A model generated the notes under the pieces. It searched no databases, had not been told where the DNA came from, and saw nothing but the letters and a program-made list of their open reading frames with translations. A DNA stretch of 64,000 nucleotides from a virus: the IMG/VR virus record IMGVR_UViG_3300023184_000030, positions 96,001 through 160,000 of that record; one strand, written 5' to 3'. Shown here in pieces: positions 7,954 through 63,414 of the stretch. How positions within the stretch are numbered: the stretch's first letter is position 1; the number at the start of each line of letters is the position of its first letter. The position numbers and the translations under genes were made by a program.

Positions 7954-8655
7954 TTATTTGGTTTTAGATACTTGACTTAAGTGCTGAGGATCGGTCATAG
8001 GTACAACAGGTACACCAGAAGGACCTACCCCAGTAGGATGTGTATGGGTATTAAAGAAAGTTAGAAAGGTGCTTCCTAAAACTAGCTTTTCGATAGCGGC
8101 TTCTCCCAGCTCTATATTTTGGGATTTTACGATTACCTTTTGCTTTGCGCCTTGTTTTTCCATTCTGACCTCATCGTCATTTAACTTTAAAACTATTCTG
8201 AGCTTTTCCTTATTAGTACCAGCATTCTGCGTGTCTAGCTGAATTGTAGCATCGCCTAGCTGAAAAACAAGCCCTTTTTTTCTTGTATAAAGCATCTTCA
8301 GAGTTCCTGGTTGAGCCTCCGAGTCATAAATTAAAGCTTGTGTACCCTCATATGAATTATCCTCCTTGAGTTCTGTCATAAGATCCTTAGAAATCTCCTT
8401 GATATAGTGATAGCTTAACTTATAATAATTATTATCCTCAAAATGAACTGCTACTACAGACCCTACTCTAGGTATGGTTATGTTACCCCCGCCAAAACCT
8501 CCACCAAAAGATAAACCTGCAATCTGCTCAGCCCACGGTAAATCATCCGAAGGAAGACCATCAAATACACCAAAAACTTCTATTCTTGCTCTTCCTTGAT
8601 AAAGTGGATCTTTTATATCAACCACCTTACCGAGGTACGTTTTTTCACTTGGCAT
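7954..8655 (-). CDS. Baseplate central spike (gp5 OB-fold / P2 gpV-like)
   Basis: YLGKVVDIKDPLYQGRARIEVFG..LPWA..IPRVGSVVAVHF OB-fold; C-terminal HTHPTGVGPSG HxH metal-binding apex. Confidence 0.85.
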   Translation of the reverse strand: MPSEKTYLGKVVDIKDPLYQGRARIEVFGVFDGLPSDDLPWAEQIAGLSFGGGFGGGNITIPRVGSVVAVHFEDNNYYKLSYHYIKEISKDLMTELKEDNSYEGTQALIYDSEAQPGTLKMLYTRKKGLVFQLGDATIQLDTQNAGTNKEKLRIVLKLNDDEVRMEKQGAKQKVIVKSQNIELGEAAIEKLVLGSTFLTFFNTHTHPTGVGPSGVPVVPMTDPQHLSQVSKTK

Positions 8656-8657
8656 AA

Positions 8658-11333
8658 TTATTCAAATTTTTCAGGGCTGGGATTCATTCCGCCTGTACTA
8701 ATGTTATACTTATCTTTTGGTTTTAAATTTCCCATATCTAAAGGTTTTTCAACCATAAAATCTCCATTTGTGTTAGGATAAGCTTTTCCTATATCTCCTC
8801 TTGATTTTTGACTCTTCATTTCAGATTTTTGGTAAACAGCATTAGGTTTTGTAGCAAATGAGTTTACAGCATCTCTAAGTTCACCGTTGGAAGATATTTT
8901 CTGAGTTTGTGCATAAACTGGGTTTGCTTCTATAGCTGTTTGATTAGCACTTTTTACAGCATCAGGATAAACCTTTTGTTCGGCAAGGGGTATTGAATTT
9001 TGATTAGGAGGGTAGACCTCCTCTGATATTTGTGGATATACTCTGTCAGGTACACCTAGATCAGATCCAGGAACGTTGGTGTAAGCATCACCTATCGGAT
9101 CAACGTAAACCCTATCTGGTACGCCTAAAGCAGTTCCTGGTACATCAGCATAAACGTCTCCGCCCGGAGCTGGATATACCCTATCAGGTACACCTAGAGC
9201 AGTTCCAGGTGAAGCGTCATAAACATCCCCGCCTGGAGCAGGATATACTCTATCAGGTACACCTAAAGCAGTTCCTGGTACATCAACATAAACGTCTCCT
9301 CCCGGAGCTGGATATACCCTATCAGGTACACCTAAAGCAGTTCCTGGTACATCAGCATAAACGTCTCCTCCCGGAGCTGGATATACCCTATCGGGAACAC
9401 CTAAATCTGTCCCGGGTACGCTCGTGTAAGCGTCTCCGCCCGGAGCGGGATAAACTCTATCAGGAGCACCTAAATCGGGTCCAGGTACAGTGGCATAAAC
9501 ATCTCCCCCTGGAGCTGGATATACCCTATCAGGTACACCTAGAGCAGCTCCAGGAACATCAGCATAAACGTCTCCCCCTGGAGCGGGATAAATCCTATCT
9601 GGCACACCTAAATCGGGTCCAGGTACAGTGGCGTAAACATCTCCACCTGGAGCTGGATATACCCTATCAGGTACACCCAGTGCAGTTCCTGGCACATCAT
9701 TATAAACGTCTCCACCAGGAGCTGTATAAACCCTATCAGGAACACCTAAATCAGGTCCAGGTACGTTTGCGTACGAGTCTCCACCAGGAGCGGGATAAAC
9801 TCTACCCTGAATACCGGATACATTACTAACACCTAAATCTTGTCCAGGCACTTTACCGTATACGTCACCTGATACTTTTCCGTAAACCCTTTGCGGTGGA
9901 CCACCTAAACCTGTTGTCTGTGGATTTGGTAGAATTGTCTCTCTAAATCCAGCATTAACATTACCTAGCTGATCCAAGTATTGCTGGGCAGTATTAAATG
10001 ATAGGTTACCTAAAACTTGAGAAGGATTTAAGCTATAAATATTACCGAGAATCAATTTATCTAATCCTGCGACATTAGGTTTTATGTAGGTTGCAACACC
10101 TTCGTTAATAAGGTCATTTAATGAATTACTTAAAAAGTTAGTTAATAACTCACCACCTATAGAAAGAATATCATCTCCTAAATTACTAGGATTTTTTTGA
10201 ACTGATGATCTAGCACCATCCCAGCTATCTCCAAGAATTAATGGTTTACCGTCTTGTCTTATATTAGGATATTGACTTCTCGTTCTAACCTTACCTACTA
10301 TGATTCTGAATTTTTGTCCTACCGGGGTTGCTGTATCTGAACCTGCACTGATCTCGCTAGGTATAGGGGTGCTTTCGCTAAAATCAAATTCACAATTTCT
10401 GCACTCAAAAACTATAACCGGTTTTACACCTGATTGATCTTGTTGATTTCTTAACATAGACAAATCATTATCAACACCAGCTCCATTTAAAACGTTTCCA
10501 ACAAATGAATTAAATCCGCTTGCAGGATTCGTGTTTGATGATCCCCCATTATATTCACTATTCTGCTCCCCCACATCTCCCAGGTTTGTCCCTGGATTAT
10601 TTCCAGATCCTAGCATAGTTGCTAAATTGTCTATAGTAGTCAAAGCAGCGGATGCACCAATAAGTCTAGACGTCTTAAAGAAATTACGTATCTCAGAAAC
10701 GAAAATATACATAGTAAATTTCCTAAGGTTTCTCGGGACTAATTCCCTCATGTTATCATAATCAAAAGTTGCCTGATTATAGAGATCTGCAAGAGCGGTC
10801 ATTCTTAAATTTAATGACTCTAATGTGGTAAACTCTAAAGCTTTACCAGCAGTTCTCTGTGGATTAAAATCAGAATCTGATTCAACAGCAAACCCCTTTC
10901 TTGATACTAAAGGTAATTGATCTAATCCTGATATTGTTTGTAAAAACCAAGGTGAATTATTAAGTAAGTCAGTTAAGCTGTTCTTAAACTGTATAAGCAT
11001 ATCTGAACGTTTTCCTCCCCTAGGAAATTCTGCCTCTCTTTCTCTCAGATATGATGTTGCAGAATAGAAATTAATCGCTCCGTTTGGTGTAGTTCTATAC
11101 GAATACTGGGGTTGCCCAAAAGGATTAGATGAGCTAAATCCACTAGGAATATATGACTCCTCTCTAAAAAGAGGACTAGGAGGAAGACCATCATCATCTC
11201 TTATGGGGAGGGTACCGAAATCTATCACTATTTTAAATCCAAGATATGTTGGATCCTCGTAATTTCCTTGTTTGGATAGCTTAAAGCCTTTTAAAAATAG
11301 ACTCCTTAATTGATCTGTTGCTCCTAATGACAT
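8658..11333 (-). CDS. Baseplate/tail-associated protein with 23-aa tandem repeats
   Basis: 891 aa in baseplate cluster; globular-looking N-terminus then DRVYPAPGGDVYADVPGTALGVP-type repeats. Confidence 0.6.
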   Translation of the reverse strand: MSLGATDQLRSLFLKGFKLSKQGNYEDPTYLGFKIVIDFGTLPIRDDDGLPPSPLFREESYIPSGFSSSNPFGQPQYSYRTTPNGAINFYSATSYLREREAEFPRGGKRSDMLIQFKNSLTDLLNNSPWFLQTISGLDQLPLVSRKGFAVESDSDFNPQRTAGKALEFTTLESLNLRMTALADLYNQATFDYDNMRELVPRNLRKFTMYIFVSEIRNFFKTSRLIGASAALTTIDNLATMLGSGNNPGTNLGDVGEQNSEYNGGSSNTNPASGFNSFVGNVLNGAGVDNDLSMLRNQQDQSGVKPVIVFECRNCEFDFSESTPIPSEISAGSDTATPVGQKFRIIVGKVRTRSQYPNIRQDGKPLILGDSWDGARSSVQKNPSNLGDDILSIGGELLTNFLSNSLNDLINEGVATYIKPNVAGLDKLILGNIYSLNPSQVLGNLSFNTAQQYLDQLGNVNAGFRETILPNPQTTGLGGPPQRVYGKVSGDVYGKVPGQDLGVSNVSGIQGRVYPAPGGDSYANVPGPDLGVPDRVYTAPGGDVYNDVPGTALGVPDRVYPAPGGDVYATVPGPDLGVPDRIYPAPGGDVYADVPGAALGVPDRVYPAPGGDVYATVPGPDLGAPDRVYPAPGGDAYTSVPGTDLGVPDRVYPAPGGDVYADVPGTALGVPDRVYPAPGGDVYVDVPGTALGVPDRVYPAPGGDVYDASPGTALGVPDRVYPAPGGDVYADVPGTALGVPDRVYVDPIGDAYTNVPGSDLGVPDRVYPQISEEVYPPNQNSIPLAEQKVYPDAVKSANQTAIEANPVYAQTQKISSNGELRDAVNSFATKPNAVYQKSEMKSQKSRGDIGKAYPNTNGDFMVEKPLDMGNLKPKDKYNISTGGMNPSPEKFE
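9048..9806 (-). repeat. 11 tandem 69-bp coding repeats, plus one degenerate copy at about 9825-9893
   Basis: Units counted in the translation; 11 x 69 = 759 bp. Confidence 0.9.
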
Positions 11334-11351
11334 TAATAGATTTAATTTTTA

Positions 11352-11359
11352 TATTTATC
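11352..11359 (-). promoter_or_regulatory. Putative late promoter GATAAATA
   Basis: Motif 18 nt upstream of the 11333 start. Confidence 0.55.
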
Positions 11360-11367
11360 CTTCTTTT

Positions 11368-12927
11368 TTAAACCATGTTTTTAAGAATGGAAATAGGAAA
11401 TGCCTTAGGGGCAGCTCCCGAGGAGTTAGCTTTCCATGTTCTTTTAGCTAGTATTAAATGCTGCTTCATTCCTGCACTTCCCCTGCTCCAATATATAGAC
11501 ATCGAGACAACCACATAATTACCTGACAAAAACTCATCCTTAGTTGGACTCATAGATGTATTATTTTCCCTATTAGGAAGTTCTCCGGCATTTTGTTGTC
11601 TTATACCTCCGCTCATAACATAAATAGCGACAGGGATAACCTGTCCTCTATAAATACCAGGAAAGAAATCAGTAAGCTCAACTTCTAATGTTAGTTTTGT
11701 GCAATCATTTATATTTATAAGATTTTGGTATTTAGCATGGAGATAATTCTTATGTACCCCACCATCACCAGAAATCTGTGTATTTAAAACCCCCAGCCAT
11801 TCCCTTCTTTTTTCGTCCTTGTATTCGTTTCCTCTGGCTCTACCTTTTTGCAGAATTGAACCCGTTCCGACATGCTCAGCTGTTATCGATTCTATTGGAT
11901 AGCTCACATATTTTTGTGAGGGATCTTCATTTTCAGTATTCTCGTCATAGAATCCGATATCAGTAATGTACCCACTCTTATTTACGTTATTACCTGCTCT
12001 AGAAGTTAATGTATATCCATTTATAAAAAAAGGCACTAAACCGAATCCTACCCTATTAGTTATGACCAGGGGTACTGTTTGAGCTGTCGGTGCAGTTCCC
12101 TCCGGAATAGCAGAATCTATTTTATTACCCGCCGAGGTATATCCAGGTAAAATCCTAGCCTCTGCTTTAGGATCTTTATCAAATGCAAACTGGGATCCAA
12201 GGTTAACAAAATTGAGATTATAATAAGGATCTATCCAGCAATCATAAAAGCTCGTATCATCGTCTTTATATGATCTAAGGGAAACCTCCTGGATGAAATC
12301 ATAATAAGAATAATTTGGACATATCCAAGTCATTGTATCTGCTAGCGATTTATCATTAGAGGAAAATCCAAGATTCAAATCCTGGGAAACCTCAAGAAGA
12401 GTATCATGTGAATTTAAACCATTAAATGATTTTATTCTGTTTGTGTAAAGTCCGGGTATTCTGCATTCTGCAACTATATTAAATCTTAAATTGATACCCT
12501 TTCCCTCCGGATCACTTCCAGTTTCTGAATATTTACTTGATACCTCACTAGCAACATTTAGTATATTAAAATCCATTCTTATTGGCTTATAATATTCACC
12601 GGGTGCTCTCATATAGAGAGAAACTATATCTCCATCTTTAGGATAATTCACGGATATGAATATATTTTCAGATGCAATAAAAGAAAATCTGATGACTGGC
12701 ATAAACCCGCTAAGATCCATGTCAAATTTAGTAAGATATAGAGAAATATTATAACCATTAATCGAAATAAACGGCACATTTAATCCCGTAGATTTTTCTG
12801 CAGTTTCCCCTGAGCTTCTTAATGAGCTAATATCACTAGCACCATTAGCAAAGTCGGTTTGGACCAACTCGTCCAGCTTCATGTTGTTTAGTGCTGAACT
12901 GGATATAATTATAGAATCTCTTTCCAT
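11368..12927 (-). CDS. Baseplate hub protein (gp27/gpD-like)
   Basis: Lies between gp53-like and spike genes; C-terminal FPGIYRGQVIPV...FLSGNYVVVSM hub-type motif. Confidence 0.55.
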   Translation of the reverse strand: MERDSIIISSSALNNMKLDELVQTDFANGASDISSLRSSGETAEKSTGLNVPFISINGYNISLYLTKFDMDLSGFMPVIRFSFIASENIFISVNYPKDGDIVSLYMRAPGEYYKPIRMDFNILNVASEVSSKYSETGSDPEGKGINLRFNIVAECRIPGLYTNRIKSFNGLNSHDTLLEVSQDLNLGFSSNDKSLADTMTWICPNYSYYDFIQEVSLRSYKDDDTSFYDCWIDPYYNLNFVNLGSQFAFDKDPKAEARILPGYTSAGNKIDSAIPEGTAPTAQTVPLVITNRVGFGLVPFFINGYTLTSRAGNNVNKSGYITDIGFYDENTENEDPSQKYVSYPIESITAEHVGTGSILQKGRARGNEYKDEKRREWLGVLNTQISGDGGVHKNYLHAKYQNLININDCTKLTLEVELTDFFPGIYRGQVIPVAIYVMSGGIRQQNAGELPNRENNTSMSPTKDEFLSGNYVVVSMSIYWSRGSAGMKQHLILAKRTWKANSSGAAPKAFPISILKNMV

Positions 12928-29727: not shown

Positions 29728-31692
29728 TTATCTTTTTGGAAATTTTTGCTCAAGTGCAGAAGCAATATAATTCATATAATCTGAAGAATACGCTTGTGGT
29801 TTTGCAGTCTCGGCTACATTTTCACTCTCGTCAAGTTTTTGTACTCCAACCAATTTAGCTCCAAGCTGACGTGTTGACCAGAAATTTTTGATCTGGTAAG
29901 GTGTATCTAAATTATAGAAGTTTGACTGAGCAACAATTGATTGCTGATGTCCTTCTGATAAAGATTCCCATACCGGAGCATATTCTGCTGGCATTTCGTC
30001 AATAAACTTAAGACCTGTTTTAGTGGTGTCGTCTGACTCGTTAAGAGCTGTTTCGTTAGCCTTTTGTGTTTCGGCTGGTGTTGTTACTGCTTTAGCAGCT
30101 TCGTTGATATTTGAAGCGGTTTTTTGTGTTTTAACCGATTCTATTAATGAATCAATCTGTGAAGTTAAGTTCTCGTAGTTTCCAGCAAAGCCAGATTCAT
30201 TAAGACCTGCTTCTGCAGATAGATTTACATTTTCTACTAATGATGTGGTATTATCAGAAGGCAATTTATTAGCAATTGATTCTGCGATATACTCACTGTA
30301 AGCAATACCTTTGTTTAATTTCTCTGCAAGGTATTCTGAATAGTCTAATCCTTTATTAACATTCTCTGCTAAGTAATCAGAATATTCGATATTTTTGTTT
30401 AGGTTTTCTGCAATGTACTCAGTGTATTCGATTCCGTTGTTTAATTTTTCTGCAACGTACTCCGTATAAGCAATACCTTTATCTAAGTTTTCACCTAAGT
30501 ATTCTGAATAAGCAATACCTTTATCTACGTTTTCTGCTAAGTACTCAGAGTATTGAATATTTTGATCCAATTTTTCTGCTAGGTATTTAGAATATTCGAT
30601 ATTCTTATCTACGCTCTCAGCTACATACTCAGAATAAGAAATAGATTTATCAACATTCTCAGCTAGATATTTAGCATAAGAAATATTTTTATCTAGATTT
30701 TCAGCCAAATATTTACTGTAGTTGATAGTGCTGTCTAAGTTTTCTGCAAGGTATTCACCATACTTAATAGAATTCTCTAAGTTTTCTGCTAAATACTCTG
30801 CATATTTTTCAAGCTTAGCAACTCTTTCCTCAAGAGCTTCATTGGCCTTACTTAAATCTTCAGATTCAGTTAGCGATGTTTTTTGGGTTTTAGCCTCTGC
30901 GATAGCGGCTCTCATCGAATCCATTTCCTTTTTCAAGAAGACTGAATACTGATTAAGCTCCTCCGCAGTAACAAATTCATTGTTCTCCATAAGGACTGAT
31001 TTATTTTTATTGTCTGATTTATTCACGATTTTATTGAATTCTTCGTTATTTTCAACTTTATATATCTTCAATGAAGATTCTTTTTCGATACCTAAAGATT
31101 CATTTAAGCATTCTAATGTATTTAATATGCTATTATTCTTTATATCCTGAAATTGCTGTGATGAAAAGCCTTCACTTTCGTAAACTCTTTCAAGCTGAGC
31201 ATCTTTAAATCCAGGATCTGCTACTAGATCATAGGTAAAGATTTTTTTAATTGCCACTTTTTTATCGTTACCAACAGATCCAGCTGCTCTTGAAGAAATA
31301 GAAAGGGGAACACCAGCATCTACCAGGTTCTTAGCTATTCTACCCGCTGGGGTATCAAGAAGCTTCACTTTTATTTTAAGATCTCTCTTACCTTTATCAT
31401 AATTAAGATCCGTGATCATATGAGAGATGTTCTTAAGCGATACGTCAAATTTCTCGGGGTGATCTAATTCACCAACTAATCTATTCTGAGCTATCTTATC
31501 TTTTAGATAATCTAGATGAGGTAAATATTCACTCTCTTCATAAATTCTATTGTTGTTGTTTTCTTTACCGAAAACAGCAGCAATACCTTCTAGGATATAA
31601 TCATCTGTATCAGACTTTTTAGCTTCTAGAACGGAATTCTGTCTTTCAAGGATGAATACCATGTTTTCATTTATTGATTGTAGTTGTGGCAT
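29728..31692 (-). CDS. gp21: Prohead protease (gp21-like) fused to a scaffold/core domain
   Basis: LEGIAAVFGKENNNNRIY, LVGELDHP, ISH, LLDTPAGRI, SISSRAAGSV, YDLVADPG; C-terminal coiled-coil repeats. Confidence 0.9.
   Translation of the reverse strand: MPQLQSINENMVFILERQNSVLEAKKSDTDDYILEGIAAVFGKENNNNRIYEESEYLPHLDYLKDKIAQNRLVGELDHPEKFDVSLKNISHMITDLNYDKGKRDLKIKVKLLDTPAGRIAKNLVDAGVPLSISSRAAGSVGNDKKVAIKKIFTYDLVADPGFKDAQLERVYESEGFSSQQFQDIKNNSILNTLECLNESLGIEKESSLKIYKVENNEEFNKIVNKSDNKNKSVLMENNEFVTAEELNQYSVFLKKEMDSMRAAIAEAKTQKTSLTESEDLSKANEALEERVAKLEKYAEYLAENLENSIKYGEYLAENLDSTINYSKYLAENLDKNISYAKYLAENVDKSISYSEYVAESVDKNIEYSKYLAEKLDQNIQYSEYLAENVDKGIAYSEYLGENLDKGIAYTEYVAEKLNNGIEYTEYIAENLNKNIEYSDYLAENVNKGLDYSEYLAEKLNKGIAYSEYIAESIANKLPSDNTTSLVENVNLSAEAGLNESGFAGNYENLTSQIDSLIESVKTQKTASNINEAAKAVTTPAETQKANETALNESDDTTKTGLKFIDEMPAEYAPVWESLSEGHQQSIVAQSNFYNLDTPYQIKNFWSTRQLGAKLVGVQKLDESENVAETAKPQAYSSDYMNYIASALEQKFPKR
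30262..30807 (-). repeat. 13 tandem 42-bp (14-aa) repeats, consensus xYSEYLAENLDKxI
   Basis: Units counted in the translation; 13 x 42 = 546 bp. Confidence 0.9.
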
Positions 31693-42488: not shown

Positions 42489-42670
42489 TTAAAAAAAATT
42501 ATTCAGCATAATTTTGGGAAAGAAATTATTGTAATGACAGTGGCTATCTAATATCTTCTATTTCACATTTTAACCATACTATATTGAGCCATATAGTATA
42601 TCGAAGATGTTATGTTGATATGAGGGGTAGAGTCGCTTATAACTGACTATAAGCTGTATTAAGAAAATAC

Positions 42671-44284
42671 TTATAAAGTTACTTCTGGTGCTTTCTCTTC
42701 GTCACCTTCAGCTGGAGCAGCTTCACCTTCAGCACCTTCGGCTTTAGGAGCTTCTTTTGCCTCTTTTTTCTTGTAATTTTCGTTAGCTGCTAATTGATCT
42801 GGAGTTAATCCGAGATATCTTTGGATAAGGTAATCATTATCAAAATATGCTTTTTCTTCCTCGCCAGCTTTAACCTTAAGCTCTCCTAGACCTTTGATGA
42901 ATTCACTTCTTTTAGAAAAATTGGTTAATTGAACCATCTCTTCGAATTCGCTCTCCCTATGGAAATCTAATCCAAGATTTGTTTTAAAGCTTCTATCTCT
43001 AGATAGCTCAGGAAAATCTAAACACATCTGAATGTATAAAGGCTTTACCAATATCTCCTGAAATATTGATCTTAATCTTCTTAGAAATTTCTCGAATCTT
43101 ATCTCATCTCTTTCCAATTGATCTATTCCTGTCTGATAATTAACTGGGCCAGAAGCTCTAGATGCAAACCTAGCATAAGGTATCTTCGAATCCATTTTAA
43201 GCTTATTATAGAAATAAAGAACATTATCCATAACGTTGAAATCAGGTCCGCTTGGATTAAGAGACTCGATTTGAGGTGATTGACCATTCTGTTCTGGAAA
43301 TAGGTAGTTTTTATAAAACTGAACCTTAGGTCTTCCATTAACTGTTAATTCTCCTGATGCGTCATTAATTGCGATATCTTCCTTATAGTTTGACATTAGC
43401 TGTCCTAAAGTTTGCATCGCTTTTTGTGGAGATTGGCTTCCTGTTGGTATAATGAACTTAAGCCTATAAGAAGCATTCATAACATTCCAGATTATTCTGG
43501 AGTTTTCCATAATTCTAAGAATGTTATACGATCTAACTAATCTCTCAATATAGCTAACTCTAGATACGCTGTTTCCTTTAGCATATGAGATATAGACAAT
43601 CTGCTCATTGGTGAGCTTTCTGGTCATTTGAGGATTCTTTGGGTATTGGATCCAAAATTGCTGATATTCGTTTTCACCTATTTTTTCAACCGCTGGCTGA
43701 AGTGAAGAAGCATCTAATTCTTTGAATCCTATTATCTCCTTACCCTTATTGTCATAGATAATCTCAAAAGCAAGAAATCCATCTATTAGGAACTGTTTAA
43801 AATATTGCCATCCTAGTATAGAATTCTGAAATCCAAAAACATTATAAATCCTGTTATAATGATCGGCTATCTTATCCTTTACCTTTTCCTTAATATCTAG
43901 ATTAATGAAAGAAGGATTAGCAAAATAATTTCTATCGTCGTATGTGATAGATTCGTCTGTAATAGTATCAAGTATAAATTCAATTTCTCCATTTAGTGAA
44001 AATTTTCTTAAGAAGTTTCTTTTTTCTATATAATCCTTATCAAAATAAGCAATATATTTTCTTACCTTAGTATCCTGATAGGAAGCTGTCCAATAGAAAG
44101 CATCATCCTGAGTAAACCCAGTTCCTTGCTGAGAGAAAGCTCCTTCAGTTTTACCTATAGCCTGAGAGTTTCTAACGACCATATCGTCATACTGCATACC
44201 AAACTTGGAAACCTTCCCGAGGTTCCTTATTATGTTGCCTAGAGCTGACTCGTTAGGTCTTAAAAAATCTAAAAATCCTGCCAT
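42671..44284 (-). CDS. gp20: Portal protein (T4 gp20-like), paralog B
   Basis: EIEFILDTITDE, FLIDG, SYIERLVRSYNILRIMENSRIIW, YLFPEQNG, DEIRFEKFLRRLRSIF. Confidence 0.85.
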   Translation of the reverse strand: MAGFLDFLRPNESALGNIIRNLGKVSKFGMQYDDMVVRNSQAIGKTEGAFSQQGTGFTQDDAFYWTASYQDTKVRKYIAYFDKDYIEKRNFLRKFSLNGEIEFILDTITDESITYDDRNYFANPSFINLDIKEKVKDKIADHYNRIYNVFGFQNSILGWQYFKQFLIDGFLAFEIIYDNKGKEIIGFKELDASSLQPAVEKIGENEYQQFWIQYPKNPQMTRKLTNEQIVYISYAKGNSVSRVSYIERLVRSYNILRIMENSRIIWNVMNASYRLKFIIPTGSQSPQKAMQTLGQLMSNYKEDIAINDASGELTVNGRPKVQFYKNYLFPEQNGQSPQIESLNPSGPDFNVMDNVLYFYNKLKMDSKIPYARFASRASGPVNYQTGIDQLERDEIRFEKFLRRLRSIFQEILVKPLYIQMCLDFPELSRDRSFKTNLGLDFHRESEFEEMVQLTNFSKRSEFIKGLGELKVKAGEEEKAYFDNDYLIQRYLGLTPDQLAANENYKKKEAKEAPKAEGAEGEAAPAEGDEEKAPEVTL

Positions 44285-44293
44285 TTCTTATTT

Positions 44294-45904
44294 TTATAAT
44301 GTTACCTCTGGTGCTTTTTCTTCCCCTTCTTCACCCTTCTCTCCGCCTTCTTTCTTCTCCGCCTTCTTCTTTTCCTTCTCTTTTCTCTCCATGGCTTCCT
44401 TGTTTGCAATGATATCTTGTCTAGACATACCAAGGAATGTTTCAATAAGAAATGCAGTAGAGAAATAGGGTTTTTCTTCGTCTCCAACTAATCCTGCCAT
44501 AGCAGTAACAGATTCTTTTCTTTTGTTTATCACGTCCATTTCTTGATTGATCTTAAATGGATTATCAGAAAAATAATCAAGTCCTAATTGACTTTTAAAC
44601 ATGAAGTCTTTTTCCAAATGAGTATATTTCTTAGCCATCTGAATCCAGAGTGGCTTAGTTAATATCTCTTGAAATACAGATCTTAATCTTTCGATAAATT
44701 TGGCAAATCTTACTTCCTCCTTGTCCAATCCTTCTGCACCGTTAGAATAAGGGGAGGTATTACCGCCATCAGGGGTATGAAATCTAGAAGGCGGAACTTT
44801 TGATTCCTGAACAAACTTATCAAAGAAATATGATAAAGGTGCTGGATCATTCAAGTTAGGTCCTTCAGTATTAACAGGCTCGATAGTAGGTGTACCATTA
44901 ACACCAGAAGGCATCAGATAGTTCTTATAGAACTGTATTTTAGGTTTACCGTCTACTAGTAATTCTCCGCTATCGTCATTTAGCTGAATATCTTCCTTAT
45001 AGATACTCATAAGTTCGCCTAGTGTCTGCATCCCCTTTTGTGGTGATTTAGTACCAATAGGAACTGTCATCTTTAATCTGAACGAAGAATTCATTACTGA
45101 CCATATAATTCTGGTATATTCTATAATCCTCAGAATATTATAAGGTCTAATCAATCTCTCAATATAACTTACTCTAGAGATCGAGTTTCCTTTAGCATAT
45201 GATATGTAAATTATCTGGGGATCGTAAAGTACTCTTCTTCTTTTTGGATCCTGAGGGAATTGTGTCCATGTATTGATAAACGTACCATCTATTTGTTTCT
45301 CAACCGATGGCACAATAGTAACCGGATCTAATTCTTTGAATCCTACGATATACTTACCGTCATTATCATAGATTATCTCAAAGCATAAAAATCCATCAAC
45401 TAAAAACTGTCTGAAATATTGCCAGCCAGTTATATCGTCACTGAATCCCCATATATCATAAAGCTTTTTGTAATTCTCATATAACTCATCTTTAAGCTTC
45501 TCGTTGATGTTTGTTATATCAATAAAGTCTGGATATGCAAAAAAGTTAGCAGGATCATAAGATATAGCTTCATCACATATCGTATCAAGTACCCATTCTA
45601 TTTCTGGATTAAGCGAAAACTTTCTCAAATAATCTCTTTTTCCCTTATAGTCCTTGTCAAAGTAAGAAATGAATTGTCTTGTAGTGATATCCTGCTTTGC
45701 TAACGTCCAAAGCATGCTTTCGTCTTCTACATTAGCCTTATTCTTATTTAAGAACGCAGCTTCTGTTACACCAACTGCTTGTGAATTTCTGATGACCATG
45801 TCATCATACTTCATACCAAAAGTACTCAGCTTTCTCACCGATTCTCTAATCCTCTGTATAACAGGGGATTGGGATGGATCATTATTATCTACAAAACCGG
45901 CCAT
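44294..45904 (-). CDS. gp20: Portal protein (T4 gp20-like), paralog A
   Basis: PEIEWVLDTICDEA, FLVDG, SYIERLIRPYNILRIIE, VPPSRF, EEVRFAKFIERLRSVF; late motif at 45963-45970. Confidence 0.85.
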   Translation of the reverse strand: MAGFVDNNDPSQSPVIQRIRESVRKLSTFGMKYDDMVIRNSQAVGVTEAAFLNKNKANVEDESMLWTLAKQDITTRQFISYFDKDYKGKRDYLRKFSLNPEIEWVLDTICDEAISYDPANFFAYPDFIDITNINEKLKDELYENYKKLYDIWGFSDDITGWQYFRQFLVDGFLCFEIIYDNDGKYIVGFKELDPVTIVPSVEKQIDGTFINTWTQFPQDPKRRRVLYDPQIIYISYAKGNSISRVSYIERLIRPYNILRIIEYTRIIWSVMNSSFRLKMTVPIGTKSPQKGMQTLGELMSIYKEDIQLNDDSGELLVDGKPKIQFYKNYLMPSGVNGTPTIEPVNTEGPNLNDPAPLSYFFDKFVQESKVPPSRFHTPDGGNTSPYSNGAEGLDKEEVRFAKFIERLRSVFQEILTKPLWIQMAKKYTHLEKDFMFKSQLGLDYFSDNPFKINQEMDVINKRKESVTAMAGLVGDEEKPYFSTAFLIETFLGMSRQDIIANKEAMERKEKEKKKAEKKEGGEKGEEGEEKAPEVTL

Positions 45905-45936: not shown

Positions 45937-46542
45937 TCAAATTAATTTCGATTGATATTCCTTATATATCCCTGCTATATCTAAGCCCTCTACTTGGGAT
46001 TTTCTAAGATATGGTAATTTATACCAATCACCAAGATCTAAAATGCTGATCTCTCTTATGAATGATGTCTTAAATCCAAAAACTGCAGACTCATAACCTG
46101 TACCTAAAAGAATTTTTTTAAGATTCCGATTTGTTAAAGGCAAGGGAGTTATTGCTCCCCCTTTTGTGTAATGATTCTGATTCTTCTCTATGAGACTACC
46201 AAAGCTATCGTATATTTTACCTAATATTTTCAGCCTATATTCGGGAGGGGTTACTATTAGGTCTATACCAGAGAGTATAACACCATTCTCCTTTGTCTGG
46301 TAGGAATCAGTACATAGTACTATTGGGTTTCTGTCTATAAACTTTCTTTTCTCAGTGATCTCACTGTCTGTGGGATAAGGGAAAGAGTATATCTCGCCTG
46401 GTATAAACGGAGGAGAGAACTTTTTTTCTGATTTTCCCCCTTGGAAATACTTTTTTGAAAATATATCATCAGTATTCTTTACAAGATCTGCAATACTGGG
46501 GAATTCTTTTTTATATTCTAATACTAATTCTGAATATGTCAT
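45937..46542 (-). CDS. DNA end protector (T4 gp2-like)
   Basis: FIPGEIYSFPY....FIDRNPIVL...GIDL..TPPEYRLKIL; adjacent to gp4-like gene. Confidence 0.55.
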   Translation of the reverse strand: MTYSELVLEYKKEFPSIADLVKNTDDIFSKKYFQGGKSEKKFSPPFIPGEIYSFPYPTDSEITEKRKFIDRNPIVLCTDSYQTKENGVILSGIDLIVTPPEYRLKILGKIYDSFGSLIEKNQNHYTKGGAITPLPLTNRNLKKILLGTGYESAVFGFKTSFIREISILDLGDWYKLPYLRKSQVEGLDIAGIYKEYQSKLI

Positions 46543-47024
46543 CTACTTTTAAATAGGAATTTTTCATCGACCACGCCGAATCTAAACCCTCTTTTTTCTG
46601 CCCATTCCTTTGCTGCTTTGAATTTTGCCTGATTGGTTATCCATACCTGCATACTATGATTATATGACTTTAACTTAGCAAGTGTCATAGCTCCTTCGTA
46701 GATAGGCTTTTGAGTTTGTCTTTCTGGTTTTATTTCGATAATCCACTCTTGCTCTTCCTCTGATTCTTTAAGTACCTTTATATAGAAATCTACATTATAA
46801 TCATGCTCTTTCTTATCGAGCGGATTAAAATACTTAATTGCTATAGGCTCCGAACTCCATTTTAATATAGAATCATTGGTATCACAATAAACGCAAAATC
46901 GATATTCCCATGAAGATCTGTATATTATATTATGAATGTCGCCAATATACTTTTCCGGCTTAGAGGGTTCAAATTTTCCGGATTTATAATCACCATTAGG
47001 CTTTACCTTCTTTATATCGGTCAT
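46539..47024 (-). CDS. gp4: Head completion nuclease (T4 gp4-like)
   Basis: GKFEPSKPEKYIGD..IIYRSSWE..FC..CD...ILKWSSE..Y.VDF..IEIKP..NQAKFKAA. Confidence 0.9.
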   Translation of the reverse strand: MTDIKKVKPNGDYKSGKFEPSKPEKYIGDIHNIIYRSSWEYRFCVYCDTNDSILKWSSEPIAIKYFNPLDKKEHDYNVDFYIKVLKESEEEQEWIIEIKPERQTQKPIYEGAMTLAKLKSYNHSMQVWITNQAKFKAAKEWAEKRGFRFGVVDEKFLFKSR

Positions 47025-47035
47025 GGAGATTCTAA

Positions 47036-47395
47036 TTAAACGTTATAAGAGTTATCGTCACCAGTTATATAACTAAATGGTATCATCTTAGGACTTTTTG
47101 GTGGATGTAGTTTCTTCCACCCCTTTGCAAATCCGTTCTTAGCTATTTGTGTAAAATAAGCAAATGGATTATTAGACTTTTCTGGGTTGAATCTGTCCCA
47201 ATATTTACAAAGATCTTCCATAGCAAATGCCATGCAGTCTTCTTTGTCTTCGGGATCTTTATAAGCCATTTTTTTAGATATACCCTGTATCATCAGGTTA
47301 AACATCCTTATGGTCTCAGGGGTTAGCTTACCCAATTTTTTCGATTCTATAACAGCGACAATAAGTTCACTATTTCTAACATATTCTTTTGCCAT
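47036..47395 (-). CDS. gp55: Late-transcription sigma factor (T4 gp55-like)
   Basis: YVRNSEL, FNPEKSNNPFAYFTQIAKNGF. Confidence 0.85.
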   Translation of the reverse strand: MAKEYVRNSELIVAVIESKKLGKLTPETIRMFNLMIQGISKKMAYKDPEDKEDCMAFAMEDLCKYWDRFNPEKSNNPFAYFTQIAKNGFAKGWKKLHPPKSPKMIPFSYITGDDNSYNV

Positions 47396-58869: not shown

Positions 58870-59445
58870 TTACATAAACAAATCTTCCCAGTAATCACAT
58901 ATCCATGATGCAGATACCGTGTAGATAGCTGGATTTTCGTAATCTAACTGCATATCATTAATAGCAGTACTGATAAAGCAAGAAGGTATTCTAATTCTTC
59001 TAAATACATCTCCTCTTTTATTAAATATTGAGATAACCATAGAACCAACATAATCGCTCTTAATACCCATCGCACCGGTTAGCGGGTTATAGATCAAATC
59101 GCTCCATTGTCTAAGTATCTTATAAACACTCATTGAATTTACGTCATTTAAGTTGACCTCAAATTCCATTGTTAATGTCATATCACTGGTAGTAGGCTCA
59201 CCTGCAGCATATCTTCTTTGAGCAAACTTGTAGGTTTGTTCAACGTTTCCGTTTGCTAAAATATCTACAGCCAAACCAGTTATAGATTTAACCTGTTGTG
59301 CTAAAATTGATTCTCCCTTGAAAGTCGTGTTAGCATCTACTATTCCCGAAGGAGGCGTGATCAAAACCTCAAATTGGTTAAGATATACCGGTTCATAGTT
59401 GTTTATCGCGGCTTTAGAATTTGTATAATGTGGTAAACCTGCCAT
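58870..59445 (-). CDS. gp19: Tail tube protein, paralog 2
   Basis: EPVYLNQFEV, RQWSDLIYNPLTGAMG, DYWED; follows sheath. Confidence 0.8.
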   Translation of the reverse strand: MAGLPHYTNSKAAINNYEPVYLNQFEVLITPPSGIVDANTTFKGESILAQQVKSITGLAVDILANGNVEQTYKFAQRRYAAGEPTTSDMTLTMEFEVNLNDVNSMSVYKILRQWSDLIYNPLTGAMGIKSDYVGSMVISIFNKRGDVFRRIRIPSCFISTAINDMQLDYENPAIYTVSASWICDYWEDLFM

Positions 59446-59462: not shown

Positions 59463-60017
59463 TTATAAGAATAAATCATCCCAATAATCAACTGCCCAAG
59501 TCATATCATCTATTTTGAATATATCGGTCGAGGTGTAATTAAGATTCATTTCACTTATTGCTTTAGTAGGATAGCAGTCTCTGCATGTTATTCTTCTGAA
59601 AACGTCCCCTTGTTTATTAAAGATAGAAACTACAATAGTACCCGTATAGTCATTCTTGAGGCCCATTGCTCCTGTTAATGGATTATAAATTAAATCACTC
59701 CATTGTCTCAATGTTTTAAAAACATACATTGAGTTGTCATCATTTAAGTTGACGGTAAAGCTTAAACTTAAATCCAGATAGGTATTATCGGGTTTAGCAC
59801 CAGCATAATTTCTTTTAGCAAACTTATACTTTTGCGTAACCAGTCCTGGGTTTTTATCTAAGGTAAGACCTCCAACCTTTGTTACTTGCTGAAGGAGTAT
59901 TTCTCCACCGATAACAGCAGAGGGTGGTATAACCGTAACCTCAAACTGATTCAGGTAAACAGGTTCATACTTGTTTATTGCTGATAGTGAATTTTGATAA
60001 TGTGATAGTCCTGCCAT
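59463..60017 (-). CDS. gp19: Tail tube protein, paralog 1
   Basis: Same motifs; GATAAATA at 60028-60035. Confidence 0.8.
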   Translation of the reverse strand: MAGLSHYQNSLSAINKYEPVYLNQFEVTVIPPSAVIGGEILLQQVTKVGGLTLDKNPGLVTQKYKFAKRNYAGAKPDNTYLDLSLSFTVNLNDDNSMYVFKTLRQWSDLIYNPLTGAMGLKNDYTGTIVVSIFNKQGDVFRRITCRDCYPTKAISEMNLNYTSTDIFKIDDMTWAVDYWDDLFL

Positions 60018-60063: not shown

Positions 60064-63000
60064 TTATACGAATTGGGTAAAGCCTCCTGCTGCTATACCA
60101 CCTGTTCTTGTAACAGTAATTCTATTAATGAATTTCTGTATACCTCTAGCAGGTTCGATGATAACGTCTATGATTCCCATATTCATATCGATGATTGCTG
60201 GAGTGTTATTAGAAGCATCCATAACAGTTTGGTAGTTGTAGATTCCGCCTCCGGCTCTTACACCGTCTAAGTAGTTATCTACTAATGTTTTAATTTCAAG
60301 TCTAATTGAATCGTCATTGAAATCAAATAAGTAGTTAGAAAGAATTGACTGAACGTCAGTTTCAATACTTATTAAAAGATCTCTTACGTGAACTAAGTTG
60401 AACGCAGAGTTAACTTGCTGATAAGCAGTTTGGTTACCGAAGATAACTACTCCGATTCCTCTTCTCTTGATGATTGGGTTAATACCGAACGGTTCAAGAT
60501 TTCCTCTGTCCTCATCAGTAAAGTCATATTCAACTCCTACGATATTACCGCCTCCGCTTAGAATACCTCTTTTTTGACCTGCGATAATTGCATAAGGTTC
60601 ACCGGTAGCAAATTTTCTAACAAAGTTATTAGATACCATAGCAGCTGGTGGTACGTTTAGATTTCTATTAGATTCTCTGATAGTAATATAAGGAGCGTAG
60701 AATGCAGCAAATTTAGATCCTTCTGCTTCACTAGGTAAGCTGAAAGTATAAGAAGGATTTAGTGATAGGTTACCCCCATCAGCTATATAAGCAGTATTTA
60801 AACTTGGATAAGGATTAACAGCTGTAGGTGCGTTAGTAAATCTAGGATCTGTACTCTTTTGAAACTGTTCCATAGAAGGAGCATTAATAAGAGCAAGCGA
60901 TTGTTGTCTAATCATTGCTAATCTACTTAACTGGTATTTAGAGTTAGGTAAGATTTGGCCAGAGAATGTATCTACCACATATCTGAATGATATAACGTCC
61001 TTAGAAGCTAATGTCTTAGCGATGTTAGTATCGTACATAACATCAAGTATTTCAGAAACCCTAGCATCACTACCATTAGGCCTGTGTGATTCTTTCATAG
61101 TGAATCCAGAAAGATAAGCGAAATCAAAAGATCTTGTAAATTGAGATATCGATTGGAATTTCTGAACTCTAGACGTATTACCGTCTCCTGAATAATAAAG
61201 GATTGGTCTAGCACATACTACTCTGTAAGTTCCTGATGTAGTTGTCGAAGCAACAGTGGTAATCTTAGCTAATCTGCTTTGTTGATTACCTGTTGCAGGC
61301 ACGCAGATGTCAAGATCAGTACATACTACCAAATCTCCAACCGAAAAAGGTACGTTTCCATTAGAGTCTTCAGTTACATAGAATGATGTTGTGTCTATTC
61401 TAGTACAGTCTACGAATTCGTTAATCGATCCCTCTTGAGAGATAATATCAAATTGCTGATCATCTACCGAAGTACCTATATTATCAGAAGCGTAAGTAGC
61501 AGAAAATAAAGCTATATTATTTATAGTGTTACCAGCTAAAGAAACGTTTGTATGAGATCTTGTGTTAACGTAATTAAACTGATCTCTATCTATTGTGTTT
61601 TCAAAAGTAAGATAATTTACAGAAGATCCTGCTGAATTTAACCAAACGATGTCACCGTCTGCAAGTTCAGCATATTTAACATTTTGGAATAATGGAGATG
61701 CGTTATAAGCTTGCAGAACAATTGATGTTCCGTTAGCAGCATTAGGACCAGTTACACCGTTAGGCGTAGGCACGTTAGCAACTCTATCTAAGTAGTCGGA
61801 GTTACCGAATTGGTAAGCACTAGAGTAAAAAGGTTTATTACTTCCAGAGGCTCCGGTGTTGTAAGAGGTTAAGCTATAAACAGGAGATACTGTTATACCT
61901 TGAGATCTATAGTAAGCTGTATCTAACGGGTGAGAGAAGAATACTCTAAGCTCCCCGCTAACATCTTTAGTTCCGGTAACTTTAAGTTTAACCAAATCAT
62001 GTAAAGAGAATTGGTTTATTAATGCTCCTGTTGCTCCGGAGATACCTTCAACTATACCAATTATGTATTTCTGATCGTTAGAAGAGTTAACTGTTAAGAA
62101 AGTTTTTAGTTCATTCTTTTCAGTAGCACCGCTTAAGTATCCAGCAGCTCCACTAGTTCCTGCTGTTTGTAAGTAATGTAATCCACCGTCATAAGCATTA
62201 GCATCATAAGCGGCAAAAGCTTGATAAGCAATACCTGCTGTTGATCCTGCGTTGATAGTGAATAAAGTACCTGTGTTCATACCAGATGTGTATCCTGTAG
62301 CTCCGGTAGGACCAACAAATCCTCCAGCTCCAGTAACCCCTATTACATTCTGCGTGTAGAGGTAATCGGCAACTAATGCCTGATCGTAACTTAAGAAGTT
62401 AATTGCAGGGTTAGCTAAATCTCTATTTCCCGATAATTCATCGATAAGGTGATTACCTACTAGATCAATCTGATATGGATTAGAGCAAATGTTATCGAAT
62501 GCTTGTTCATCAATAGCACAGAATAAACCTGTTGCTGGCGAGTTAGCATTTACTAATGTTTGAATATACTGGTTAACCCCATTAAGATCCACAAAGTCAG
62601 GAATTATACATCCGGTTACTGAAGTAACTATATTAACATCCTGTTGATTAAGGAAAGAGTCTATTTGGCTTTTTATAAATCCATTATTAGTAAAGTAATT
62701 AGACCATTTAGGATCTAAAGCTAAAGCTGCATAATTTGTCCAATCTCCGGATACTGCTATTACATCAATGAAATAATCTGACATATAGTCATAAGGGTGC
62801 ATAAAGGTAGGAACGTTATTAGCTCCATACCAATCTAATGCAAAGATATCATAACCTTTTAAAGGTTTAGTCGAGTCAGTAGACTTTCTAGTAATAATAC
62901 TAATAGGGGTTTTACCTAAATTGGTTAAAGCAAATAGCCTTCCTGTATCAGGTGTACTTAACGTTGCTAAGAAATATTTTGTATCTGCATACCAGAATCT

Positions 63001-63414
63001 CTCTTTATTGTAGTAAGATGAATATAACTCAGATGTTACCACCCCGTTATATTGCTCAGTATCAAGAGAGTATGCTATGTATGTAACCTCATCGGCATTT
63101 CCTGTGTCAGTATCATCATTTAACTTTAATAGATTTAATCCAAATACTGGACCTGTATTTAAACAAGTTAGTATAGATCTATGGAAGAAAGATCCCTTAT
63201 TTTCTAAAGATCTATCAATGTCTCCAAACACAGAGATCATAGTAGTAGGATCTGGAATGTACACAGGAGTATTGAAAGGTCCTTTGTTTGAGAAACCCAC
63301 AACCAATCTAATCGTTTGAGATGTTAGGATGACGCTTTGTGACGCGTCAAATTCAAGAGTATAAACTCCTGAGGCTTTAAACTGGGAATAGTCTATTTTA
63401 ACCTTATTTGCCAT
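60064..63414 (-). CDS. gp18: Tail sheath protein (gp18-like) with large central insertion
   Basis: SGVYTLEFD, VVGFSNKGPFNTP, VPPAAMV, AGQKRG, GINPI, FGNQT, VHVRDLL, YLFDFND; late motif at 63445-63452. Confidence 0.9.
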   Translation of the reverse strand: MANKVKIDYSQFKASGVYTLEFDASQSVILTSQTIRLVVGFSNKGPFNTPVYIPDPTTMISVFGDIDRSLENKGSFFHRSILTCLNTGPVFGLNLLKLNDDTDTGNADEVTYIAYSLDTEQYNGVVTSELYSSYYNKERFWYADTKYFLATLSTPDTGRLFALTNLGKTPISIITRKSTDSTKPLKGYDIFALDWYGANNVPTFMHPYDYMSDYFIDVIAVSGDWTNYAALALDPKWSNYFTNNGFIKSQIDSFLNQQDVNIVTSVTGCIIPDFVDLNGVNQYIQTLVNANSPATGLFCAIDEQAFDNICSNPYQIDLVGNHLIDELSGNRDLANPAINFLSYDQALVADYLYTQNVIGVTGAGGFVGPTGATGYTSGMNTGTLFTINAGSTAGIAYQAFAAYDANAYDGGLHYLQTAGTSGAAGYLSGATEKNELKTFLTVNSSNDQKYIIGIVEGISGATGALINQFSLHDLVKLKVTGTKDVSGELRVFFSHPLDTAYYRSQGITVSPVYSLTSYNTGASGSNKPFYSSAYQFGNSDYLDRVANVPTPNGVTGPNAANGTSIVLQAYNASPLFQNVKYAELADGDIVWLNSAGSSVNYLTFENTIDRDQFNYVNTRSHTNVSLAGNTINNIALFSATYASDNIGTSVDDQQFDIISQEGSINEFVDCTRIDTTSFYVTEDSNGNVPFSVGDLVVCTDLDICVPATGNQQSRLAKITTVASTTTSGTYRVVCARPILYYSGDGNTSRVQKFQSISQFTRSFDFAYLSGFTMKESHRPNGSDARVSEILDVMYDTNIAKTLASKDVISFRYVVDTFSGQILPNSKYQLSRLAMIRQQSLALINAPSMEQFQKSTDPRFTNAPTAVNPYPSLNTAYIADGGNLSLNPSYTFSLPSEAEGSKFAAFYAPYITIRESNRNLNVPPAAMVSNNFVRKFATGEPYAIIAGQKRGILSGGGNIVGVEYDFTDEDRGNLEPFGINPIIKRRGIGVVIFGNQTAYQQVNSAFNLVHVRDLLISIETDVQSILSNYLFDFNDDSIRLEIKTLVDNYLDGVRAGGGIYNYQTVMDASNNTPAIIDMNMGIIDVIIEPARGIQKFINRITVTRTGGIAAGGFTQFV

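Follow-up and report, generated by a model that had tools for sequence, protein, structure and literature searches.

Two tandem T4 gp20-type portal genes retained across a clade of uncultivated jumbo phages suggest a DNA gateway built of two subunits

The window analyzed here, a 64,000-nucleotide stretch covering bases 96001-160000 of the 172,849-bp IMG/VR virus record IMGVR_UViG_3300023184_000030 (CheckV completeness 63%), comes from a distant T4-like jumbo phage. It carries two adjacent, full-length genes for portal proteins of the T4 gp20 type, here named paralog A and paralog B, which are retained side by side throughout the related loci that we compared. Their sequences suggest that two subunits build the DNA gateway of the capsid in these giant phages. 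The most economical reading is that A and B co-assemble into one mixed portal ring, and we consider this reading about as probable as all others taken together (roughly 0.5).

Two full-length portal genes in tandem

The two genes lie on the minus strand, with A preceding B in the direction of transcription, and are separated by a spacer of nine nucleotides (nt). Protein lengths are given in amino acids (aa).

44294..45904, minus strand: portal paralog A (P0001), 536 aa, T4 gp20 type; PF07230 E 7.5e-58, PHROG 213
42671..44284, minus strand: portal paralog B (P0002), 537 aa, T4 gp20 type; PF07230 E 5e-68, PHROG 213
44285..44293, minus strand: 9-nt spacer AAATAAGAA from the stop of A to the start of B, containing a second in-frame stop

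Compared with the Portal_T4 profile (PF07230), paralog A reaches 196.7 bits (profile positions 7-432 of 433) and paralog B 230.2 bits (positions 6-433 of 433), both above the curated cut-off of 22.9 bits. The proteins are colinear, with 275/540 identical residues (51%) and 7 gaps, at a nucleotide identity of 60%. These values bear out the first-pass annotation, made from the letters of the window, which had described two tandem, intact and diverged gp20-like open reading frames (ORFs). A read-through fusion of A and B is impossible, as the spacer AAATAAGAA holds a second in-frame stop codon.

The single-copy state that is usual for the gp20 family does not apply to this clade, in which every informative locus (70/70) carries two full-length paralogs. 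The presence of two copies is a departure from the family norm, and it is no ground for excluding either A or B from the gp20 family. Among 1399 GenBank phage records with a gp20-like match, none holds two full-length gp20-like copies. The closest GenBank records are uncultured megaphages, with LR756500 at 43% identity and the others, together with the Lak phages, at ~35%. Public records label proteins of the A and B type as 'hypothetical protein [bacterium]'. One megaphage record with two match places, LR756501 (LR756501/LR756503), was considered as an independent duplication and rejected, its second place being only a 101-aa fragment. This fragment of the 735-kb megaphage (LR756501.1, 15166-15351) is an isolated ORF that matches only the last 58 portal-profile positions, and it is located ~57 kb away from the full portal gene.

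Conservation, phylogeny and selection

Scanning IMG/VR with paralog A gave 292 confirmed stretches; the comparison below uses the best 80 loci. Seventy of the 80 are long enough for both ORFs, whereas the remaining ten contigs break off within one of the two genes. Gene A is followed by gene B, in the same order, in all 80 kept loci; both genes are intact in each of the 70 informative loci, and neither stop codons nor frameshifts were seen in either copy across the 80. Orthologs of A are 65-98% identical to A and orthologs of B are 64-99% identical to B, with an identity between A and B of ~50% within every related genome. The related contigs reach lengths of up to 348-434 kb. An artefact of assembly or annotation (a region collapsed or duplicated in error, or a chimeric contig) is excluded: the nucleotide identity of the copies is just 60%, and the pair recurs, with a phylogeny to match, on ~80 independent contigs that come from many samples. 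The earlier statement that the pair is not an assembly duplicate is thereby upheld.

Two trees were calculated. The first, by FastTree, comprises 169 rows, of which 30 are A, 30 are B and 109 are full-length representatives that an exhaustive HMMER search had returned, and the second, by IQ-TREE under LG+C20 PMSF, comprises 42 rows. Both recover A and B as separate monophyletic groups, with support values (FastTree/IQ-TREE) of 99/100 for the A clade and 100/100 for the B clade, the two stable clades for which the first-pass annotation had suggested looking. A and B, together with the sequence P0123, are grouped as sisters (99/96), and the internal topologies of A and B are mirror images of each other. 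P0123 is placed at the base of the A side (95), and on its contig a second portal gene begins 9 nt downstream, truncated where the contig stops. In the next outgroup, P0124, the same gp55-gp4-gp2-portal-clamp loader synteny contains only one portal; LR756500 has one portal, and LR756501 has one portal besides the distant 101-aa fragment. Because A and B form two sister mirror clades and the outgroups carry single portals, the trees show one old tandem duplication, which took place after the split from the single-portal lineages (P0124, LR756500, LR756501).

Since the duplication, the two copies have evolved at closely similar rates. The stem branches are of near equal length (0.40 for A and 0.45 for B, IQ-TREE), and the ratio of nonsynonymous to synonymous substitution rates (dN/dS) is 0.01-0.06 for A and B alike in genome pairs with unsaturated dS. 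For A and B, respectively, the ratios are, for example, 0.027 and 0.019 between the window and L006, 0.031 and 0.028 between L043 and L045, and 0.035 and 0.033 between L052 and L056. dN is almost equal for A and B in each genome pair, and mean within-clade conservation is equal between the copies in every domain. Owing to this symmetry of stem branches, dN/dS and domain conservation, neither copy is a relaxed spare. Where the first-pass annotation had allowed for a second copy that is absent or decaying in close relatives, we found both copies intact and under equal purifying selection.

These data bear on the idea that A and B are interchangeable alternatives, either of which builds the portal, the pair being maintained for reasons of dosage, to suit different hosts or conditions, or to blunt portal-sensing host defences. 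Both copies are indeed complete portals with the same clip tip and the same tail, as this idea expects. However, redundancy would not hold dN/dS at ~0.03 down to an ortholog identity of ~65% with 0 losses in 70 loci, the clade-wide fixed differences between the copies show specialisation, and their identical expression signals offer no means of choosing a copy. We consider this explanation quite improbable.

Predicted structure and sites of divergence

The AlphaFold2 models of A and B have a predicted local distance difference test (pLDDT) score of 73.8 and 74.3, respectively. Their helices and strands follow one another in the same order, and their tails are disordered. The best Foldseek matches of both models are chains of T4 gp20 (E 4e-19 for A and 2e-20 for B, prob 1.00), and the top fold matches of the A model are the T4 gp20 entries 9mkb, 6uzc, 9lu7 and 3ja7. 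The alignment with T4 gp20 covers each model from one end to the other, at template modelling (TM) scores of only 0.5-0.69, a range that reflects the use of a monomer model for a protein that forms rings. According to these models, A and B have the portal fold, consisting of wing, stem, clip, tunnel loop and crown.

Domain limits were taken from T4 gp20 (PMC4493910), and the register was set by HMMER alignment to T4 gp20. The identity between A and B is highest in stem helix 1 (75%), followed by the clip (59%) and the wing (54-56%), and it is lowest in stem 2/channel loop (27%), the tunnel loop (28%) and the crown (27%). The clip tip, which binds the terminase in T4, is almost the same in A and B. 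The 18 positions that are fixed within each clade and differ between A and B lie most densely at B 348-365, a stretch that takes in the channel loop and helix alpha7, as well as in the tunnel loop. Several of them are acid/amide swaps in which one copy only carries the acid (A E297/B Q295, A D318/B N316, A N350/B D348 and A D362/B N360). In T4 gp20, neighbouring subunits share a clip beta-sheet, and the tunnel loops of neighbours touch (PMC4493910). Seven salt bridges also join the subunits of the T4 ring.

The marked differences between the copies in the crown and the channel-lining parts speak for the idea that one paralog has left the portal role and forms another ring-like component of the virion or of its assembly. 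Such a departure is nevertheless very improbable, as the divergence is symmetric with neither copy fast-evolving, both models align with T4 gp20 over their whole length, and the clip and stem are conserved.

A shared C-terminal tail

Both proteins end in the same nonapeptide.

44297..44323, minus strand: EEKAPEVTL of A, closing a charged linker that is disordered (pLDDT <50, residues 521-536)
42674..42700, minus strand: EEKAPEVTL of B (pLDDT <50, residues 517-537)

The nonapeptide is preceded by dissimilar charged linkers in A and B, and the last 27 coding nt of the two genes show three synonymous differences, which agrees with the earlier observation that one peptide is encoded here with different synonymous codons. 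Recent gene conversion was considered as the source of the shared EEKAPEVTL in this genome and was rejected, with 6/9 tail codons identical against a background of 53%, calculated over all residues identical between A and B. Across 49 pairs, codon identity at identical tail residues is 58% versus 53% elsewhere. In the loci L025, L029, L031, L053 and L055, the last 30 nt are 90-97% identical between A and B. For the likeness of the tails across lineages, selection and occasional short conversion are both possible. The tail is no genome-wide tag, since no similar C-terminal motif was found in the other proteins of the 172.8-kb record.

The general character of the tail is seen well beyond the pair. 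T4 gp20 terminates in ...QDPDQEQEDF, with its last eight residues disordered (PMC4493910), and the portals of LR756500 and LR756501 end in ...TTSGY and ...QAPTF, respectively. The last residue is hydrophobic in 64/109 full-length gp20-like representatives, compared to a background of 34% (binomial p ~1e-7), and the preceding linker is net negative in 82% of the same 109. An acidic linker with a hydrophobic end is a family-wide gp20 trait that is older than the duplication.

Within the clade, the usual tail end is [V/I/F]-T-[L/I], and the residues before it vary by lineage, jointly in A and B (APEVTL, APAVTL, PPQVTL, TPAVTI, TATL). Identity over the last seven residues is 4.88 within a genome compared to 3.30 for shuffled partners, a value that 0/20,000 shuffles reach in a test that ignores relatedness. 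Among 49 distinct pairs, the tail is kept in both copies in 36, in B only in 11, in A only in 2 and in neither in 0. It was lost from one copy at least four times independently and never from both, which is the pattern that redundancy within one assembly predicts. By this measure, A and B are interchangeable in evolution as carriers of the tail. Both the joint variation of the tails and the lack of any double loss are real and new.

By analogy to the crown of T4 gp20, which faces the capsid interior, the tail would be located inside the prohead. The T4 portal nucleates the scaffolding core (PMC9958956), and T4 gp20 co-purifies with gp22. Viable T4 with C-terminal gp20 fusions has been reported (PMC9026906), so a free C-terminal end is not strictly required in T4. 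The first-pass annotation had suggested that the conserved tail may be a shared scaffold-docking signal. This suggestion has to be qualified, the tail being a family-wide gp20 trait and no peculiarity of the duplicated pair. The tail results suggest that gp20-type portals, T4 included, may carry a short motif for docking at their inner end.

Expression layout

A late-promoter-like motif precedes the pair.

45963..45970, minus strand: late-promoter-like motif GATATATA, lying within the 3' end of the gp2-like gene, 59-66 nt ahead of the A start codon (ATG)

All matches to the motif GATAWATA in the window (19/19) are found on the coding (minus) strand, at a total that is not above chance (19 versus 15.6 expected). 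Among 48 distinct related loci, 46 have the motif 28-72 nt upstream of A, and none has it within 150 nt upstream of B. The spacer between A and B measures 1-22 nt in all 48. The strand bias and the fixed place before A suggest that GATAWATA is a late-promoter element. The layout fits an arrangement of A and B as one late bicistronic unit, and we predict their joint expression because a single late-type motif precedes genes that are separated by spacers of only 1-22 nt.

A proposed mixed ring or two separate rings

An ancient tandem gp20 duplication was fixed in a large clade of uncultivated jumbo phages, and we propose that both copies are functional portal subunits, produced together from one late transcript. 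Paralogs A and B would co-assemble at the unique capsid vertex, for example as an alternating A6B6 ring, resulting in a change from 12-fold to 6-fold symmetry. The outward contacts, namely those of the clip to terminase and neck, of the stem, and of the wing to the capsid, would be common to A and B. Divergence is concentrated in the crown, which faces inward, and where the subunits line the DNA channel (channel loop, helix alpha7 and tunnel loop). The C-terminus that A and B share would be the clade's version of the family tail, positioned inside the prohead and interchangeable between the copies; its docking partner is probably a single internal component, for instance the scaffolding core. 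Co-assembly, its stoichiometry and the partner of the tail are what we infer here from the observed behaviour of the genes.

A mixed ring is in line with the constant retention of the two paralogs together (70/70 loci, with mirror trees). Duplication of a co-expressed, co-retained homomer is the commonest route to obligate heteromers, according to two studies (PMC7480870, PMC6711710). Duplicated homomers begin as heteromers, and their separation usually needs regulatory divergence, as described in the latter (PMC6711710). A heteromer is favored here because such regulatory divergence between A and B is absent.

Alternatively, A and B could form two separate homododecamers with different jobs, one as the virion portal and the other as an assembly-only ring of an initiator or chaperone-like kind, or as a ring acting at another place or time. 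Every portal domain is kept in A and B under equal constraint, which fits two such rings, and the fixed tunnel-loop differences could sort the subunits and keep the rings pure, given that the T4 tunnel loop helps to set ring assembly (PMC4493910). About half of bacterial paralog pairs derived from homomers stay homomeric (PMC7480870). On the other hand, the common promoter-like site and the 1-22 nt spacers leave no regulatory separation, and the clip and stem, which make the outward contacts, are the parts most alike between A and B. The tail was lost singly at least four times and never jointly, which would be odd if each ring needed a docking signal, and a single capsid protein gene was found. 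Two separate homododecamers are the main rival of the mixed ring, and we regard them as rather unlikely. The one capsid gene and the likeness of clip and stem also speak to some degree against the existence of two particle types or of two vertices that differ, both of which the first-pass annotation had listed beside a heteromeric portal.

Several points weigh against a mixed ring. Since about half of the homomer-derived paralog pairs of E. coli keep separate homomers (PMC7480870), the prior for a heteromer is about even. Two separate complete rings would explain the strong conservation of all domains in A and B just as well, and a second capsid gene set is possible, as the record is only 63% complete. 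Regarding the tail, short gene conversion may have homogenised some of the sequences, namely those of the loci with near-identical 3' ends named above, and the tail statistics take no account of phylogeny. Given the reported active T4 with C-terminal gp20 fusions, the tail may also be less important than assumed.

Gene neighborhood

Upstream of the portal pair are genes for further proteins of T4 type.

45937..46542, minus strand: gp2-like DNA end protector, directly upstream of A; PHROG 429, weak, E 3e-4
46539..47024, minus strand: gp4-like head closure protein; PHROG 218 E 2.5e-47
47036..47395, minus strand: gp55-like late sigma factor; PHROG 234 E 4e-15, Sigma70_r2

For the gp2-like protein, orthologs from the outgroup loci match PF26869 Phage_T4_gp2. 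Downstream of the pair, a DNA ligase, a gp44-like clamp loader, a guanylate kinase and an RNase H-like exonuclease are encoded. The 221-nt gap between portal B and the DNA ligase gene holds a perfect 9-bp AT-rich inverted repeat (atactatat ... atatagtat) at ~42575-42599 of the window (minus strand), 70-95 nt past the stop of B, which may be a transcript end or a processing hairpin.

In the 63%-complete record, one gp23-like major capsid gene and one prohead protease gene were found. The prohead protease (window 29728-31692, minus strand) is a 654-aa fusion, with an S77-like protease domain at ~residues 19-290 that is followed by ~14 tandem 14-residue repeats of the type YSEYLAENLDKNI and then by a conserved C-terminal domain. 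This fusion is conserved among thousands of metagenomic proteins and looks like a protease and a scaffold in a single chain.

Other duplications in the record

An all-against-all comparison of the ORFs of the record yielded few paralog pairs, of which the portal pair is the strongest. The next strongest is a tandem pair of tail-tube paralogs at 58870-59445 (191 aa) and 59463-60017 (184 aa) of the window, both on the minus strand and 55% identical, located directly downstream of a 1116-aa sheath gene (60064-63414). The tail-tube pair is tandem in 79/80 related IMG/VR loci, with spacers of 14-19 nt, and the one exception is a locus that is cut short. In each of the megaphages with a single portal, LR756500 and LR756501, one tube match was found. 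Outside the window, the record holds three tandem paralogs of 523-667 aa that are ~30% identical (G000 67512-72890, minus strand), and a two-gene module that occurs twice at distant sites (8253-12500 and 164656-166803, 36-44% identical).

In a broader reading, both duplications would have arisen in the same lineage, and the whole DNA conduit would be composed of two alternating subunits, with an obligate A6B6 portal of 6-fold symmetry, carrying two kinds of channel and tunnel loops, continued by a two-paralog tail tube. We put this forward as a tentative and rather doubtful extension of the mixed ring.

Comparison with known systems

Full-text searches, with most subscription-journal papers outside their coverage, turned up no publication that describes two portal paralogs or a heteromeric portal. 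A comparative survey of jumbo phages mentions only a gp20 ortholog, and the portals of tailed phages and herpesviruses in the surveyed literature and structures are all single-protein rings. If A and B do form a mixed ring, it would be the first heteromeric portal of any tailed phage or herpesvirus.

In T4, the head proteins gp23 and gp24 are the products of a duplication, and the copies occupy different positions of one shell. They provide an analogy for structural paralogs that have been subfunctionalised, although they belong to the capsid lattice and not to a portal ring, and one gp23-like gene was found in this record. To our knowledge, a split of the gp23/gp24 type is known for no portal. 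The pair also resembles hetero-oligomeric rings that arose by duplication, in that a ring homomer was duplicated, its paralogs are retained together and their co-expression is predicted. Those rings, however, are cellular complexes with measured interactions, whereas that of A with B is a predicted one.

The closest known system is T4 gp20 itself (PF07230; PDB 3JA7, 6UZC, 9MKB, 9LU6/9LU7). Paralogs A and B share its family, fold and domain layout, its disordered acidic C-terminal tail with a hydrophobic last residue, and its genome context with homologs of gp2, gp4, gp55 and gp44. They differ from it in number: T4 has one full-length portal gene, whose product forms a homododecamer, whereas here two 51%-identical tandem paralogs are found across the clade. 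The T4 models of packaging-motor docking, symmetry mismatch and DNA gating assume twelve identical subunits, and the pair could give a portal with a built-in 6-fold symmetry. A clade with two retained portal subunits thus represents a natural experiment on which portal functions can be split. In these phages, the split functions would sit in the channel and tunnel loops and in the crown, not in the clip.

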